Shown here: positions 16,842 to 21,508 of the stretch, one piece after another
Layout of the letters: each line of letters opens with the position of its first letter
Position numbering within the stretch: position 1 is the first letter of the stretch
Source of the DNA: Candidatus Brocadiaceae bacterium
GTDB taxonomy: Bacteria > Planctomycetota > Brocadiia > SM23-32
Direction: 5' to 3'
Length of the DNA: 24,883 nucleotides
Assembly: GCA_050050635.1 (NCBI GenBank)
Contig: JASFTU010000001.1
Coordinates: forward strand, 1-24,883
The notes under the pieces: model-generated
The model's database searches: none
What the model was told of the DNA's origin: nothing
What the model saw: only the letters and a program-made list of their open reading frames with translations
Program-made: the position numbers and the translations under genes

Positions 16842-17411
16842 ATGAAGCTCGGATTACGCGACTTCTGGTACGACCTGAGGAATCGTCGCTACAGGTTCCG
16901 CCAGTTCGCCGGTGCCCTCTTCGCCGTCCTCCTCCTGCTGTGGGCACTGCCGCGGAAGTGGGACTTCTGGGTCGGCATACCGTTCATCGGCCTGGGGGAA
17001 GGGGTGCGTCTGCTGGCGGCCGGCTACCTCCGTAAGGACTCGAGCCTGGCCACGGGCGGACCGTACGCCTTCGTCCGCCATCCGCAGTATCTGGGCAACA
17101 TCCTGTTGGCCGTCGGGCTGTGCATCGCTTCGGGTTACCCGTGGGCCGTGGGCGCCTGGGTTTTGCTCTTCTGGCTTTTCTACCTCCCGGCAATCCGGCG
17201 CGAGGACAAGAGGATGGAGCACAAGTTCGGCCCGCACTGGAGGGAGTGGCGCAGCCGGACACCGGCGGTTCTCCCCCTCAAATGGCCGTTGCGGGGGTCG
17301 CCCGGGCGCTTCGGTGGCTGGTCGCTCCGAAGGGCCATCCTGAACGGAGAGCCCTTCTGGATGCTTTGCGTACTGGCGGGGGTGGCTTCGCTCTACGTGC
17401 GCCTGGTATGA
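16842..17411 (+). CDS. Isoprenylcysteine carboxyl methyltransferase / PEMT-family membrane methyltransferase
   Basis: LATGGPYAFVRHPQYLGNIL, RREDKRMEHKFGPHWREW (EE..L...FG..Y-type), TPAVLP. Confidence 0.85.
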   Translation: MKLGLRDFWYDLRNRRYRFRQFAGALFAVLLLLWALPRKWDFWVGIPFIGLGEGVRLLAAGYLRKDSSLATGGPYAFVRHPQYLGNILLAVGLCIASGYPWAVGAWVLLFWLFYLPAIRREDKRMEHKFGPHWREWRSRTPAVLPLKWPLRGSPGRFGGWSLRRAILNGEPFWMLCVLAGVASLYVRLV

Positions 17412-17426
17412 CGCCGGGCCCGGGAC

Positions 17427-17909
17427 TCAGAAGTGCTCCGCCTTGTAACGGGCGAAGTCTGTGACGTGTTGCCGTTCCTCGGCGATGATCTCCTCCAGCA
17501 GCGGGCGATCCTGCTCGGGCACGAACTGCAGCATCTCATGGTAGAACAGCAACGTGTTCCGCTCCATGGACATCGCCGTGTCCACCGCCTCCCGGTCGGA
17601 CTCCTGCCTCCTGGCCATCTGCTCGCCGTCCTCCCCCATGGGGAAGATGCGCCCTTCCACCAGGTAGGACATGTACGACTCATACTCGCCCGGATACTGC
17701 TCTCCGGTCGGCGCGTAGTCCCCCAGCCTGTCCAGGAGTCGACGGAACTTCTCCTCGTGCTCGTCTTCCATCTGTGCCACCTCCAGGGCGAACTCACGGA
17801 GTTCGGCGGAGTCCGTGCTCTCCGCCAGCTCCCGGTAGAAGGTGGCCCCCGTCTTCTCCTCGCGGACCGCGATCTCGATCAGCTCGCGCGCTGAGAATAG
17901 CTCCGGCAT
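17427..17909 (-). CDS. Ferritin-like di-iron protein (rubrerythrin-type four-helix domain, no rubredoxin domain)
   Basis: EIAVREEKTGATFY...MEDEH and MSMERNTLLFY...AEERQH (paired E and ExxH motifs); AGGAG RBS. Confidence 0.88.
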   Translation of the reverse strand: MPELFSARELIEIAVREEKTGATFYRELAESTDSAELREFALEVAQMEDEHEEKFRRLLDRLGDYAPTGEQYPGEYESYMSYLVEGRIFPMGEDGEQMARRQESDREAVDTAMSMERNTLLFYHEMLQFVPEQDRPLLEEIIAEERQHVTDFARYKAEHF

Positions 17910-17998
17910 TGACTGCTCCTCTCGGTATGGACTCGACCCGGCGGCCCTGCGGGGCAGCGTGACCGCCCGCGCGACGCCCCCGGATTCGGTAAGCCCCC

Positions 17999-18027
17999 AT
18001 GTTAATCCAACCCCGCGCGGGATGCAA
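17999..18027 (-). promoter_or_regulatory. sigma70-like promoter for the ferritin-like gene
   Basis: TTGCAT (18027-18022), 17 nt spacer, TAACAT (18004-17999). Confidence 0.55.
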
Positions 18028-18039
18028 CGGCGGCGGCGT

Positions 18040-19071
18040 TCACGCTCCCGGGGCGCGCACCAGCACCTTCCGGAGCACCTCGCCGCAGTAGTCGCACTCC
18101 TCGCACCGGCGTCGGCAGCTCGAAGTGCGCTCGAACCAGTCCTCGGGGAAGCGTTCGTTGTCCACTATGTGGGGGGCCACCGCGGGGGAGAAGCCCGGCT
18201 CGAGCAGGTCCAGCAGGTTCCCCCGGTGCCGTCCCCCGGCATAGGCGTGGACGACCATCCGGGGTCGCGCGTGCATCCGGGTGGCCAGCTTCACCTGCCC
18301 GAACATCTCCTCGTAGTGATGCAGGTCTTCGGGCCGGACCCAGCTCGCCTGCAGGATGGCCGGCCAGTGCACGGGATCCTCCAGGTAGTTCCAGCACACG
18401 TGCGGCGTCCAGTCGGGCACGTTGCGGGTCTCGTCCACCTCCTGCTCGTGGGCCACAAGGTTGTCGTGGAACGTCTGCCCGGAGCAGAAGGCCAGACATC
18501 CGCTGTTGACCAGCAGGTGGATCCGCTTGCCGTGCCGGTCGGCCCACGCCTTCAGGCGCCGCAGGTGCTCGAGGTCGCGGTTGTACTCGCGCCTCACGTA
18601 GTAGCTGTCGAACAGGCCCCCCACGTAGGCCATCGCCTGAACCGTGTCGATCCGCATGTTGACCGACGCCCGGACGTCCACCTCCGGGAAGTTGCGCCGG
18701 ACGGTCCGGGCGATGAGCAGGGAAGTGGTGGTCACCGCGTCCACGCCGTCCACCAGATGATGCAGATAGTCCAACGCGGAGAGGACCTTCTGCTCCAGCC
18801 ACTGGCTCGCCGCTCTGCCCCCGTAGCAGTTCGCGTTGAACAGCAGGTTCAGCCGGATGCCCATCTCCCGGAAGGCCCGCAGGTCCTCCTCCAGCCGCCG
18901 CTGCGCCGTCCAGTCCGTGTATCCCCGTCGGCTGGCCATCGCCGCCCGGCCACTGGGCATGTCGGCCCAGGGGAAGTAGACCTCGTCAATGCGGTCGGCG
19001 AAATCCCGCACCACCTCCAGGAGACTTTCCTCACCGGGTTCACTGAGCTGGTACCCAACAGAGAACTGCAT
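18040..19071 (-). CDS. Peptidase U32-family-like Fe-S protein (divergent subfamily)
   Basis: LNLLFNANC, VRASVN, LLVNSGCLAFC..QTFH, SWVRPEDLHHY, KLATR, GNLLDLL, C-terminal CRRRCEECDYC. ATG at 19071. Family call from motif recall. Confidence 0.72.
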   Translation of the reverse strand: MQFSVGYQLSEPGEESLLEVVRDFADRIDEVYFPWADMPSGRAAMASRRGYTDWTAQRRLEEDLRAFREMGIRLNLLFNANCYGGRAASQWLEQKVLSALDYLHHLVDGVDAVTTTSLLIARTVRRNFPEVDVRASVNMRIDTVQAMAYVGGLFDSYYVRREYNRDLEHLRRLKAWADRHGKRIHLLVNSGCLAFCSGQTFHDNLVAHEQEVDETRNVPDWTPHVCWNYLEDPVHWPAILQASWVRPEDLHHYEEMFGQVKLATRMHARPRMVVHAYAGGRHRGNLLDLLEPGFSPAVAPHIVDNERFPEDWFERTSSCRRRCEECDYCGEVLRKVLVRAPGA

Positions 19072-19210
19072 CGGGGCTATCCCCCTTTCCTCACCGGGGC
19101 CATCTGCCCTCTCTGAAGCGCCGGTGCCTCTTGGAGGCCAGTTCGCGGACCGGCCCGGGCCGGACGCCGGGTCGTTCCACGACATCGCCCTCGAACGGAC
19201 GCGAGCGGGG

Positions 19211-20230
19211 TCACTCCCCCGAGTAGGGCTCGGGTGGCTGGGACGGGGCCCGGGGATTGACTTCGGGCGCCGGCTCCGACCAGTCGATCCGCCACGGTTT
19301 CCTCCGCCGGAATGGCATCCTGAACGTGTTCTCCAGCACGCCGCGCTCCTCCAGGTGGATCATGCACGCGCGCATGCACCCGCGGGCGCCGCAGATCGCC
19401 TGCCCGTACTGGTAGAGATTGCGCGGCTTGTCCACGAAGGGCGACCACCAGCCGGGACGGGTGGTGTGTCCCCAGAAGGTGGTGTACGACTCCTCGTCTT
19501 CCACCTCGTCATCGATGACGGCTCCCCGGAAGGCCATGTCGCAGGCCGCCAGATCCAGATCCATCCATTCCACTTCGTGGCCGGCGAGCGTTACGCGGAC
19601 CGTTCTGTCGGGATCGAAGGCCCCGATGGGGCACTGGCGGACGCAGTCCAGGCACCGGTCGCAGAGCTGCGGGCCACCATAGATGGGGTCCGGCTCCAGC
19701 TCCGCGTCGGTGATCACGATGCCCAGGCGCTGTCGGGGGCCGAACTGGGGGGTCAGGAAGATCTTGGAGAAGCCGATCTCGCCCAGTCCGCACAGGAACC
19801 CGGCGATGCGCAGGTGCACCATCACGTCCGGGGCGGCCCGCCCCTCGGCCGCCGGCCGGCTGTAGTCGGGCTTCAGGGCCCCGTCGGCCGTGATGCCACG
19901 CCAGGGACTCAGATGACCGTAGGGGACAGCTTCATGTCCGTGGTCCTCGATAAATTTCGAGAGATTGATGGCAACCAGGGGCATGTAGAGCCAGTTCAAG
20001 CCGCCGTAGCCCATCGAGGAGTAATTGCTGAAGAAAGTGCCCTCCTCCACGCCCCGCAGGCTGCCGCGCATGACCCGAAACGCCATGCCGACGATGCTCT
20101 TCGCCTCGGGCATGATCTGGCGGGGATCCATCTGGATGGGCGCGCCCTCCCAGCGGTCGATTGAGCCGATCCGCACGGCGTCGGCACCGAGGGCGCGCGC
20201 CGTCTTCTTAACGTCCCCTGCTTCCAGCAT
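19211..20230 (-). CDS. RdhA/QueG-superfamily Fe-S (probably cobalamin-binding) oxidoreductase
   Basis: ARALGADAVRIG, IMPEAKSIV, CGLGEIGFSKIFLTPQFGPRQRLGIVITDAELEPDP, CDRCLDCVRQCP, C...CGARGCMRAC. ATG at 20230 after AGGAGG. Confidence 0.82.
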   Translation of the reverse strand: MLEAGDVKKTARALGADAVRIGSIDRWEGAPIQMDPRQIMPEAKSIVGMAFRVMRGSLRGVEEGTFFSNYSSMGYGGLNWLYMPLVAINLSKFIEDHGHEAVPYGHLSPWRGITADGALKPDYSRPAAEGRAAPDVMVHLRIAGFLCGLGEIGFSKIFLTPQFGPRQRLGIVITDAELEPDPIYGGPQLCDRCLDCVRQCPIGAFDPDRTVRVTLAGHEVEWMDLDLAACDMAFRGAVIDDEVEDEESYTTFWGHTTRPGWWSPFVDKPRNLYQYGQAICGARGCMRACMIHLEERGVLENTFRMPFRRRKPWRIDWSEPAPEVNPRAPSQPPEPYSGE

Positions 20231-21005
20231 GCTCGGCCTCCTGCTGTTCCACGGTCTGTTCGCCGGCGGATGAAAGCCTGCCCGCCGACTCCACAAGTGC
20301 GTCGATCGCCTCTGCCCTGCGTTCGGAGAGGCCGGCCGGCAACGCTATGCCCAGGGCACCGTGCAGGACGCCGCCCGCGCCGAACACCGGGACGGCAAGG
20401 GGCAGGATGGCCTTGCCCGATAGCCGGGGCGCGGCGTAGCCCGAAGAGCGCACCTCCTGCAGGAAGCCCTCCACCTCCTCGATGGTGTCCCACAGGTGGG
20501 CACCGTGCTCCCAGAAGGGATGCCGCCGGCGGTAGGCGGCGCGTTCCTCCTCCGTCCAGTACGCCTGAAACACGAGGGCGCTGGCCGTGCCGTAGGGATG
20601 CATGGAACGAGTGGCGTCCCGCTGGATGAAGCCCGGCCTCTCCGGGCTCGTGCGGAGCACCGCGACCACTGCCTCCCCGATGTGCCGGGAGTAGGTCACC
20701 GTGGCCGCCGGAAAGCGCTCCGCAAGGTCCCGAACCACCTCTGCAGCGCGCTCCATCAGGCCGCCCTCCCACCGGGCGCGGGCCAGGTCGAACACCACCG
20801 GCCCGAGGGCGTAACGCACGGGTCCGGTGTGCCGCTCGACGAAGCCCCGCGCGGCGAGGGTGCGCAGCACCTTGTGCGCCGTGGGCGGCTTCAGGCCGAG
20901 CCGACCGGCCAGCTCCTTGAGGGCCACCCCCTCCGGCTCACCGGCCAGCTCGACCAGAACGTCGAGGGCGCGGAGCACGGACTGGATCAGACGGCTGGCG
21001 GCCAT
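20208..21005 (-). CDS. IclR-family transcriptional regulator
   Basis: IQSVLRALDVL...LKELAGRLGLKPPTAHKVLRTLAARGFV...YALGP (IclR wHTH); C-terminal VRSSGYA and LAVPVF..GALGI. Confidence 0.9.
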   Translation of the reverse strand: MAASRLIQSVLRALDVLVELAGEPEGVALKELAGRLGLKPPTAHKVLRTLAARGFVERHTGPVRYALGPVVFDLARARWEGGLMERAAEVVRDLAERFPAATVTYSRHIGEAVVAVLRTSPERPGFIQRDATRSMHPYGTASALVFQAYWTEEERAAYRRRHPFWEHGAHLWDTIEEVEGFLQEVRSSGYAAPRLSGKAILPLAVPVFGAGGVLHGALGIALPAGLSERRAEAIDALVESAGRLSSAGEQTVEQQEAEHAGSRGR

Positions 21006-21042
21006 GATTCACGACCGACAAAGAATTGTTTACCACACGGAC

Positions 21043-21070
21043 ATTCTACCGTGCATCGGCTCCGTGTCAA
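21043..21070 (-). promoter_or_regulatory. sigma70-like promoter for the iclR operon
   Basis: TTGACA (21070-21065), 16 nt spacer, TAGAAT (21048-21043). Confidence 0.75.
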
Positions 21071-21110
21071 GGCCCGCAGCACAGAAGTGAGAGAAAACCA
21101 GGAATCCGAC

Positions 21111-21138
21111 TTGACAGATCGAGCCGAGGGCTTATAAT
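21111..21138 (+). promoter_or_regulatory. Consensus sigma70 promoter for the DUF134/ORP-like operon
   Basis: TTGACA (21111-21116), 16 nt spacer, TATAAT (21133-21138); both hexamers are exact consensus. Confidence 0.85.
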
Positions 21139-21155
21139 GAACATATGTTCATAAT
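21134..21155. promoter_or_regulatory. Palindromic operator candidate
   Basis: ATGAACATATGTTCAT (21137-21152) is a perfect 16-bp palindrome, extending to 22 bp with one mismatched pair; it overlaps the -10 and the expected start site. Confidence 0.75.
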
Positions 21156-21163
21156 CGAGACCG

Positions 21164-21508
21164 ATGCCCAGGAATAAGAAAACAAGGCTTGTCCGCCACC
21201 GACCACCGGCGGCCGTGTTCAAGCCGGCCGGGGTTCCGGCGCGGGGCCTGGAGCGTTGTGTGCTCCCGCTGGATCAGTACGAGGCGATCCGGCTGGCCGA
21301 CCACGAGGGGCTCAACCAGGAGGAGGTGGCCGAGAGGCTTGGCGTCTCGCGGCCCACCGTGAGCCGCATGCTGGCCGAGGCCCACCACACGGTGGGGGAG
21401 GCCCTGGTGGAGGGGCGGGCACTGCTGATCGAGGGCGGGCCGGTCTCGTTCGCCCCGCCGTTCGGTCGGGGTCGCCGCCGCCGCTGGCGTGGCGGAAGAA
21501 CCTGGTAG
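21164..21508 (+). CDS. DUF134 (UPF0251) HTH-containing putative DNA-binding protein
   Basis: MPRNKKTR, FKPAGVP, YEAIRLADHEGLNQEEVAERLGVSRPTVSRML...ALVEGRALLIEGG. Confidence 0.9.
   Translation: MPRNKKTRLVRHRPPAAVFKPAGVPARGLERCVLPLDQYEAIRLADHEGLNQEEVAERLGVSRPTVSRMLAEAHHTVGEALVEGRALLIEGGPVSFAPPFGRGRRRRWRGGRTW

Follow-up and report, generated by a model that had tools for sequence, protein, structure and literature searches.

Two divergent iron-sulfur proteins of the RdhA/QueG and U32 superfamilies form a conserved unit with an IclR-family regulator

The three genes iclR, RdhL and U32L, on the minus strand of the window (the whole stretch of 24,883 nucleotides analysed here), are a real, conserved unit of a regulator and two unusual iron-sulfur enzymes, in which RdhL is a deep, unannotated branch of the RdhA/QueG superfamily and U32L a deep, unannotated branch of the U32 superfamily. 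In the reading that we prefer, with a probability of about 0.5, the three genes make up an operon that is horizontally mobile, self-contained and inducible by an effector, and that encodes a two-enzyme Fe-S redox unit of the cytoplasm. The original prediction proposed an IclR-controlled module of this kind acting on a small metabolite, and it holds for the unit, for the two superfamilies and for their distinctness from known systems; its cobalamin, its hydroxylase activity and its small-metabolite substrate we infer. The features discussed below are the following.

18040..19071, minus strand: U32L, a divergent U32-superfamily TIM-barrel protein (343 aa)
19211..20230, minus strand: RdhL, a cytoplasmic RdhA/QueG-superfamily Fe-S protein with two 4Fe-4S motifs (339 aa)
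20208..21005, minus strand: iclR, an IclR-family transcriptional regulator (265 aa)
21070-21043, minus strand: sigma-70-type promoter TTGACA-16-TAGAAT preceding iclR, matching the consensus at 11 of 12 positions
21134..21155, no strand assigned: near-perfect palindrome ATAATGAACAT-ATGTTCATAAT in the intergenic region between divergent genes, possibly an operator

Gene structure and regulator

The layout agrees with what had been read from the letters. The promoter expected ahead of iclR is present; two promoter sites, this one among them, were found in positions 17300-21300, with 0.4 expected from shuffles, and terminator-like sites were not found within this scanned region around the unit. 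The proposed overlap of 23 nt between the stop of iclR and the start of RdhL (20208-20230) was confirmed, because the MLEAG start of RdhL is consistent with the homolog alignment (A2). The U32-like gene lies downstream of the Fe-S gene, as predicted, and its start is placed 139 nt past RdhL because the MQFSVGYQ start fits a second alignment (A1) and the called protein P0124.

The IclR protein matches Pfam HTH_IclR at 6e-12 (45.5 bits, cut-off 22) and IclR_C at 22.2 bits, slightly below the 24-bit cut-off, in an alignment spanning residues 83-242. NCBIfam models align across residues 4-243, with full-length yet sub-threshold matches to the BhcR, PcaR/PobR and KdgR models. The regulator has an N-terminal HTH_IclR domain and, with IclR_C below cut-off, a C-terminal effector domain, like the IclR regulators of aromatic and organic-acid catabolism (PcaR/PobR, KdgR, BhcR, AllR), and as in those systems its gene heads the operon that it presumably controls. 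Unlike them, it obtains at most 60 bits with the equivalog models, whose cut-offs are 250-350.

Relatives of IclR resemble the same known regulators in having a palindromic operator that overlaps the promoter-proximal region. This putative operator, a TTCAKC-N3-5-GMTGAA palindrome, lies between the -10 box and the start codon, and operator palindromes are present in about 14 of 21 upstream regions. In the window the typical operator was not found: TTCATC-N3-GATGAA is absent near the iclR promoter, even allowing up to 3 mismatches, and this counts against our best explanation. The palindrome at 21134..21155 is a possible operator, and its TGAA-N6-TTCA core resembles the everted half-sites beside the IclR operators of two other loci (L058 and L052). 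It also shares positions with the -10 of the opposing DUF134 promoter and therefore may belong to the DUF134 operon instead.

Two divergent branches of known superfamilies

The prediction of RdhA/QueG-like and U32-family enzymes was borne out at the level of fold and superfamily, where profiles and Foldseek support both assignments; in Pfam and NCBIfam, no family scored above cut-off for either protein. The RdhL profile matches PceA-type RdhA at 7.5e-15, NpRdhA at 1e-8 and QueG at 2.4e-5. Its predicted model is moderate only (pLDDT 70, residues 54-78 disordered), and with it Foldseek recovers the cobalamin-binding core fold of RdhA/QueG in 8Q4H, 4UR3, 5D6S and 4RAS (E 4e-8 to 1e-6, TM-scores 0.36-0.43). 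Both cluster motifs of RdhA are present in RdhL, namely CX2CX2CX3CP (C190-x2-C193-x2-C196-x3-C200-P201) and a second Cys set (C230...C280-x4-C285-x3-C289), and all eight Cys are invariant in an alignment of 16 sequences. The invariant R168 aligns with PceA R305 and NpRdhA K488, which counts in favour of our best explanation as a matter of active-site logic. For base-off corrinoid binding no sequence motif exists; RdhL is predicted to carry cobalamin.

RdhL shares its fold and superfamily, its two [4Fe-4S] motifs and the conserved basic residue with NpRdhA/BhbA and the respiratory RdhA (PceA), and with NpRdhA a cytoplasmic location. In contrast to these systems, it is only 339 aa long, has no Tat signal, RdhB, fused NAD(P)H reductase or vestigial second B12 domain, and has a U32-like protein as its partner; its very high conservation across phyla, at about 60-80%, contrasts with the hypervariability of the RdhA family. 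A classical dehalogenase was rejected, as the reductive dehalogenase model TIGR02486 gives 41.5 bits against a cut-off of 160.35 and covers residues 144-209 only, the N-terminus MLEAGDVKKTARALGADAV shows no Tat signal or RRxFxK motif, and no small membrane-protein gene that could encode an RdhB-like anchor adjoins RdhL in the window. QueG is similar to RdhL in its class-III cobalamin fold, Fe-S motifs, size and cytoplasmic location, but RdhL is without the HEAT-like tRNA-binding C-terminal domain of QueG, is patchily distributed and presumably substrate-regulated, and scores 23.1 bits with the QueG model TIGR00276, far below its 200-bit cut-off. We know of only two reactions of class-III cobalamin reductases, dehalogenation and epoxyqueuosine reduction. 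An association of cytosolic RdhA-like genes with IclR/MarR regulators has been noted, in general terms only (PMC12219181).

The AF2 model of U32L (pLDDT 83) has the U32 TIM-barrel fold, its top Foldseek match being 5D88 (U32 protein Mk0906; E 1.6e-9, TM(target) 0.68). A broad-family profile (A3) matches 5D88 at 1.1e-9 and, by hhalign, UbiU with E 9.5e-5 and a probability of 59%. The link by profile comes from this broadened profile only; the narrow U32L profile gave no match among PDB sequences and no significant hhalign match to E. coli UbiU and UbiV. Pfam U32 (PF01136/IPR001539) reaches 15.4 bits on U32L, below its gathering score of 22.4, and matches 12 of 25 diverse relatives, at best with 6.5e-14.

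UbiU/UbiV, TrhP and RlhA are O2-independent, prephenate-dependent hydroxylases, and to our knowledge the mechanism of U32 oxidases is not known. U32L has in common with them the U32-type TIM barrel and a Cys-rich loop that follows the equivalent beta-strand, and like UbiU-UbiV it works beside a second Fe-S protein. In characterised U32 oxidases, an essential four-Cys motif, CX6CX15CX3C, binds [4Fe-4S] (PMC11574389). The alignment of U32L lacks this motif and shows instead CX3CX29C with an additional C82 (C82 and C192-x3-C196-x29-C226, with M=1 as in A3; numbering in A1 is +1, its first row having an extra N-terminal residue), together with an extra C-terminal CX3CX2CX2C cluster (C319-x3-C323-x2-C326-x2-C329). 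U32L also differs from U32 oxidases in its partner, which is the RdhA-like protein and not SCP2/UbiT, and in lacking the U32 C-terminal domain. Because CX6CX15CX3C is missing, O2-independent hydroxylation by U32L is suggested by analogy and not by membership. As had been anticipated, the pair is set apart from bona fide QueG, TrhP, RlhA, UbiU and UbiV, with scores far below the QueG, reductive dehalogenase and U32 family cut-offs.

Distribution, linkage and neighbours

U32L is encoded in about 470 species genomes, from uncultured Planctomycetota, Armatimonadota, Lentisphaerota, Chloroflexota, Bacillota and others, and the distribution of the module is patchy and crosses phyla. Linkage was counted in the best 80 U32L loci, all from MAGs, in nine named phyla. 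The pairing, whose confinement to this genome would have refuted the original prediction, recurs widely: RdhL occurs in cis with U32L in 62 of the 80 loci and directly upstream of it in 43, where the two genes are a median of about 50 nt apart. Among the 18 loci scored as lacking RdhL, the upstream flank is shorter than 1.2 kb in 7 and shorter than 1.9 kb in another 3. IclR lies directly upstream of RdhL in 19 of the 62 linked loci and heads an IclR-U32L-RdhL cluster in one more; it accompanies only about one third of modules, and others have AraC or GntR neighbours, with AraC regulators flanking Clostridia loci and GntR regulators adjoining one module (L084).

The two enzymes are also associated at the level of genomes. 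All five genomes with unlinked U32L still encode RdhL-family genes (three with scores of 546-656 bits, a fourth at 399 bits whose gene has an in-frame stop, and a fifth with only a 244-bit paralog). In a sample of 301 genomes of the phylum, only 5 carry U32L, all 5 have RdhL, and the four RdhL matches of at least 430 bits are confined to U32L genomes. RdhL and U32L co-diverge (Mantel r 0.41, with 0 of 999 permutations as high), and IclR identities correlate with those of each enzyme at r of about 0.63. Identity across phyla is about 60-80% for both enzymes (averages 62-67%), against 38% for IclR. RdhL-RdhL tandem and fused modules occur without any U32L, and one genome (G268) has 11 RdhA-like matches and four IclR-linked modules, which we count as substrate diversification.

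Clustering the neighbour ORFs of the 80 loci revealed no conserved fourth gene or transporter and no conserved pathway neighbour, none being found in more than about 9% of loci. A sulfatase, adjacent in 7 loci, was rejected as a fourth gene, since this adjacency equals the genomic background (11-105 sulfatases per genome, or roughly 0.05-0.27 expected per 12 kb). Rubrerythrin, encoded downstream in the window, was rejected as a module member, its adjacency not being conserved elsewhere. In Armatimonadota, a DUF3604 protein and a cupredoxin-like lipoprotein are inserted between RdhL and U32L and are probably unrelated to the module. A literature search found no description of the RdhL/U32L pair, in agreement with the claim that no system of such composition had been described.

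Proposed function and alternatives

Our best guess is that the module is inducible and acts in the cytoplasm to transform a small, diffusible compound. IclR would keep its own promoter repressed until it binds a small-molecule effector. RdhL, a minimal-core member of the class-III-cobalamin (RdhA/QueG) family that bears two [4Fe-4S] clusters, would most likely catalyse a reductive elimination, taking a halide or an oxygen function off an activated carbon, probably aromatic or heteroaromatic, with low-potential electrons from ferredoxin. U32L, a TIM barrel with a non-canonical cluster site, would share the substrate or pathway of RdhL, most plausibly in an O2-independent oxidation or hydroxylation, and its extra C-terminal four-Cys cluster may relay electrons to or from RdhL, with which it may form a complex. 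We are doubtful about, and put forward tentatively, the stronger proposal that RdhL and U32L are an obligate heteromer coupling corrinoid-type reduction to U32-type O2-independent oxygen handling on one substrate. If this were true, the reaction would be of a new anaerobic type, in which an aromatic or heteroaromatic ring might, for instance, undergo net substitution or O-atom transfer, and the U32 and QueG-like branches would gain their first catabolic small-molecule role, in abundant uncultured anaerobes.

It is also conceivable, if unlikely, that RdhL is the sole catalytic subunit and that U32L is a dedicated redox or maturation partner, with its two clusters as a wire, and not a hydroxylase; its proposed task would be to deliver electrons, to reactivate Co(II) to Co(I) or to handle the cofactor. 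The C-terminal cluster of U32L is typical of electron relays, RdhL has neither a reductase domain nor an RdhB partner, and the tight coupling and co-divergence of the two genes and the missing oxidase motif would all fit. However, the tandem and fused RdhL modules do without U32L, which in some genomes is itself unlinked from RdhL, and its TIM-barrel core is conserved as strongly as RdhL, suggesting a substrate site. The substrate is open to a similar doubt: some loci adjoin GH20, GH84, BNR sialidase, fucosidase, GH29 or GH106 genes, which would fit a glycan-derived rather than an aromatic compound, and the pair might then act in anaerobic breakdown of an amino, deoxy, sulfated or N-acyl sugar and not on anything aromatic or halogenated. 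The hosts (PVC, Armatimonadota, Sumerlaeota and Clostridia glycan degraders), the AraC or GntR neighbours and the KdgR-like similarity of IclR point the same way, but the low ceiling on any neighbour, the background-level sulfatases, the lack of a consistently linked kinase, aldolase or transporter, and the housekeeping surroundings of many modules, the one in the window included, make this improbable.

Far less credible is an RNA-modification pair at or near the wobble position, with RdhL as a short QueG and U32L as a TrhP/RlhA-type RNA hydroxylase. By superfamily, QueG and TrhP/RlhA come closest among the characterised relatives other than dehalogenases, and the window's own genome (64% complete) yielded no canonical QueG or Tgt. 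Yet another genome (G031) has a true QueG (254 bits) alongside the module, which argues strongly against a tRNA-modification role, and the low QueG score and missing tRNA-binding domain of RdhL, the absence of the U32 oxidase Cys motif, the 5 of 301 genomes with U32L, the dedicated IclR or AraC regulators with putative operators and the up to 11 paralogs in some genomes all speak against it. Chance adjacency of three functionally unlinked genes has practically nothing in its favour except the unrelated housekeeping genes around the unit, and is contradicted by a gene order conserved in nine named phyla, by co-divergence and by genome-level co-occurrence.

With the effector-inducible two-enzyme operon as the preferred reading, two anaerobic metalloenzyme superfamilies that are among the least understood meet in a tightly conserved, co-inherited, presumably substrate-regulated pair, whose genes metagenome surveys probably mis-count as reductive dehalogenases, epoxyqueuosine reductases or collagenases. 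Through its effector, the dedicated IclR, whose operator can be recognised, gives practical access to the substrate. The reaction, once found, would be the third known for the RdhA/QueG family and could clarify the role of Fe-S clusters in U32 proteins. As a further point against the preferred reading, distant relatives of U32L occur in rSAM/SPASM peptide-maturation clusters, and this branch of the superfamily is therefore not restricted to small-molecule hydroxylation.

Organization and distribution of the module

The original prediction placed iclR, an overlapping Fe-S gene and a U32-like gene in this order behind one promoter, and the coordinates confirmed this arrangement, overlap included. 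The Fe-S gene encodes RdhL, a protein of the RdhA/QueG superfamily, and the U32-like gene encodes U32L.

21111-21138, plus strand: DUF134 promoter, exact consensus
21134-21155: near-perfect 22-bp palindrome (ATAATGAACAT-ATGTTCATAAT), the only strong palindrome of the window
21070-21043, minus strand: promoter TTGACA-16-TAGAAT
21005-20208, minus strand: iclR
20230-19211, minus strand: RdhL Fe-S gene, overlapping the iclR stop by 23 nt
19071-18040, minus strand: U32L Cys-rich gene, 139 nt after RdhL
17909-17427, minus strand: rubrerythrin gene, 130 nt downstream of U32L

The rubrerythrin gene may be co-transcribed with U32L in the window; terminator prediction between the two genes gave no terminator-like site, and a rubrerythrin gene adjoining the module is absent from all 80 related loci. 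The surroundings in the window (G+C ~67%) include thiC, nadA, a 2-oxoacid:ferredoxin oxidoreductase, NAD kinase and an ABC exporter, with a DUF134/DUF5320/NifX-like/Mrp cluster on the other flank of the module, whose closest relatives are found in Candidatus Brocadiia/Brocadiaceae MAGs.

Homologs at 60-80% identity number in the thousands for RdhL and for U32L alike; they come from many phyla and often share contigs. A U32L relative is encoded in 470 of the 185,579 species genomes scanned, and loci were compared in the best 80 of these 470, all MAGs, from Armatimonadota (26), Planctomycetota (20), Lentisphaerota (7), Bacillota (5), Chloroflexota (4), Verrucomicrobiota (2) and Sumerlaeota, Spirochaetota and Firestonebacteria (1 each), with 10 lacking a named phylum. 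Conservation of the pairing elsewhere was borne out across many phyla, as RdhL shares the locus of U32L in 62 of the 80: directly upstream in 43 of these (median gap ~50 nt), upstream with inserted genes in 15 and downstream in 4. Among the 18 RdhL-less loci, the upstream flank is shorter than 1.2 kb in 7 and than 1.9 kb in a further 3. All five solitary-U32L genomes carry RdhL-family genes elsewhere, three scoring 546-656 bits, one 399 bits with an in-frame stop, and the fifth having only a 244-bit paralog. When 301 genomes of the window's phylum were sampled, U32L was present in 5, each with RdhL; RdhL matches of at least 430 bits (n = 4) were confined to U32L genomes, and 10 further genomes had more distant RdhL paralogs only.

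Pairwise identities co-vary between RdhL and U32L (Mantel r 0.41, a value reached in 0 of 999 permutations), and those of IclR co-vary with both enzymes (r ~0.63), mean identity being 62-67% for the enzymes versus 38% for IclR. On the U32L tree, from which two of the 80 loci were dropped, 17 changes of phylum label are needed where 8 would be the minimum, and Bacillota sequences are intermixed with those of Planctomycetota. This pattern and the patchy distribution fit repeated lateral transfer.

An Armatimonadota clade carries a cupredoxin-like lipoprotein (lipobox LMGCPP; Cys/His/Met type-1 copper pattern) between RdhL and U32L (L030:5293-5904, L034:3453-3959), sometimes together with a DUF3604 protein. 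In one lineage of JGI metagenome contigs (L087/L088), the gene after a 66%-identical RdhL is BNR/sialidase-like, not U32L.

RdhL and U32L within their superfamilies

No Pfam family matched RdhL above cut-off, and the NCBIfam RDH and QueG models scored 41.5 bits (cut-off 160) and 23 bits (cut-off 200), over residues ~144-209 only. A 16-sequence RdhL profile retrieved from the PDB the RdhA chains 8Q4H (7.5e-15), PceA (1.5e-9) and NpRdhA (1e-8), as well as QueG (2.4e-5), and Foldseek with the AF2 model (pLDDT 70) matched the same proteins at 4e-8 to 1e-6. In the 16-sequence alignment, eight invariant Cys form two Fe-S cluster motifs, and the invariant R168 (in FGPRQRLG) aligns by profile with PceA R305 and NpRdhA K488, the basic residue of the active site in both enzymes. 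The RdhL sequence has no Tat signal, membrane anchor, reductase domain or QueG C-terminal domain; since the Tat signal and RdhB are both absent, identity as a respiratory dehalogenase was rejected.

For U32L, the Pfam U32 match was 15 bits (E = 0.011) and a narrow profile matched no PDB sequence. Its AF2 model is a TIM barrel (pLDDT 83, pTM 0.86), with the U32 protein Mk0906 (5D88) as best PDB match (E 1.6e-9). An exhaustive HMM search gave 1836 cluster representatives at E <=1e-3 and 203 at <=1e-30; an alignment of 25 diverse relatives, 12 of which match Pfam U32 (best 6.5e-14), matches 5D88 by sequence (1.1e-9) and E. coli UbiU (E 9.5e-5). Therefore, U32L belongs to the U32 superfamily as a deep but genuine branch. 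In start-corrected numbering (M=1), the conserved Cys of U32L comprise C192-x3-C196-x29-C226, frequently accompanied by C82, and an invariant C-terminal set, C319-x3-C323-x2-C326-x2-C329; this pattern differs from CX6CX15CX3C, the motif that PMC11574389 describes as essential for U32 oxidases. The original interpretation is supported in part: the module is real and widespread and its enzymes belong to the superfamilies originally named, whereas the canonical U32 oxidase Cys motif is absent.

The module brings together new subfamilies from two known superfamilies, a combination that is itself new. In line with the original prediction that no described system has this composition, full-text literature searches gave no description of the pairing; a cold-seep survey reports cytosolic RdhA-like genes adjoining IclR/MarR regulators and does not mention a U32 partner (PMC12219181).

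Regulation and possible function

In 19 loci RdhL is immediately preceded, on its own strand, by an IclR gene, and in one more (L056) IclR is the first gene of an IclR-U32L-RdhL cluster; at least five named phyla are represented among these loci. In Clostridia the place of IclR is taken by a divergently oriented AraC regulator, and one module (L084) is flanked by GntR regulators. About 14 of 21 upstream regions contain a palindrome, TTCAKC-N3-5-GMTGAA, located past the -10 box and ahead of the iclR start; no site of this type occurs in the window. The palindrome at 21134-21155 shares bases with the -10 box of the divergent DUF134 promoter and is separated by 64 nt from the iclR -35 box, which lies downstream of it. 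Its core, TGAA-N6-TTCA, is similar to additional half-sites present in two related loci (L058 and L052), and the palindrome could serve as an operator for DUF134 or for IclR.

A tRNA/rRNA modification pair was rejected because a true QueG (254 bits) occurs alongside the module in one genome (G031), and because of the rarity of the module in the phylum, its substrate-type regulators and its paralog expansion. Neither canonical QueG nor Tgt was found in the window's own MAG, which is 2.64 Mb and 64% complete (closed genomes of class-level relatives are ~3-4 Mb).

No transporter, kinase or pathway enzyme accompanies the module consistently in the 80 loci, and a membrane-permeant substrate would suit a stand-alone, inducible, cytoplasmic two-enzyme unit that lacks an uptake system. 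The active-site-type arginine of RdhL and the IclR regulator recall those catabolic dehalogenases whose substrates are substituted phenolic acids, and to our knowledge every U32 enzyme characterised so far hydroxylates an sp2 carbon of a ring. On these analogies, we favour a scheme in which RdhL would reductively remove a ring substituent and U32L would carry out a coupled O2-independent oxidative or hydroxylating step, or relay electrons; that U32L is a redox partner only seems rather improbable. A glycan-derived substrate is suggested by GH20, GH84, sialidase or fucosidase genes around some loci, but others, the window's included, lie among housekeeping genes, and we consider such a substrate unlikely. 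The most frequent neighbour, a sulfatase (7 loci), was rejected as a link, this count equalling chance expectation in genomes with 11-105 sulfatases.

Paralogs and distant relatives

The window's own genome encodes on contig C19 (L092:4318-5442, minus strand) an RdhL paralog (35% identity) that keeps all Fe-S motifs and is located without a U32L partner between a cyclophilin gene and mnmG, and on C355 a third, more distant RdhA-like fragment. Another genome, G268, has 11 RdhA-like matches; its IclR-linked modules number four, of which two are RdhL+U32L pairs, one is an RdhL-RdhL tandem and one a fused double RdhL. Tandem pairs, short plus long, recur in other genomes, and the tandem and fused arrangements make up a second type of module in this family. 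IclR-linked RdhL-only modules (L094, L095 and L096 in G268; G307:C6, G306:C245, G310:C55, G309:C140) consist of tandem short and long genes or encode one fused 756-793-aa protein, and their neighbours include a PaaK-like CoA ligase, an ACT-thioesterase and a URO-D-like protein.

Distant U32L relatives (24-29% identical; L102-L106, L099/L100) share the C-terminal four-Cys motif and sit in radical-SAM/SPASM, PqqD, ScmC and ABC-transporter clusters, which resemble loci for peptide (RiPP) maturation. The Bathyarchaeia relatives lie directly 3' of a B12-binding radical SAM gene, and those of Omnitrophota have a TPR region fused at the C-terminus.
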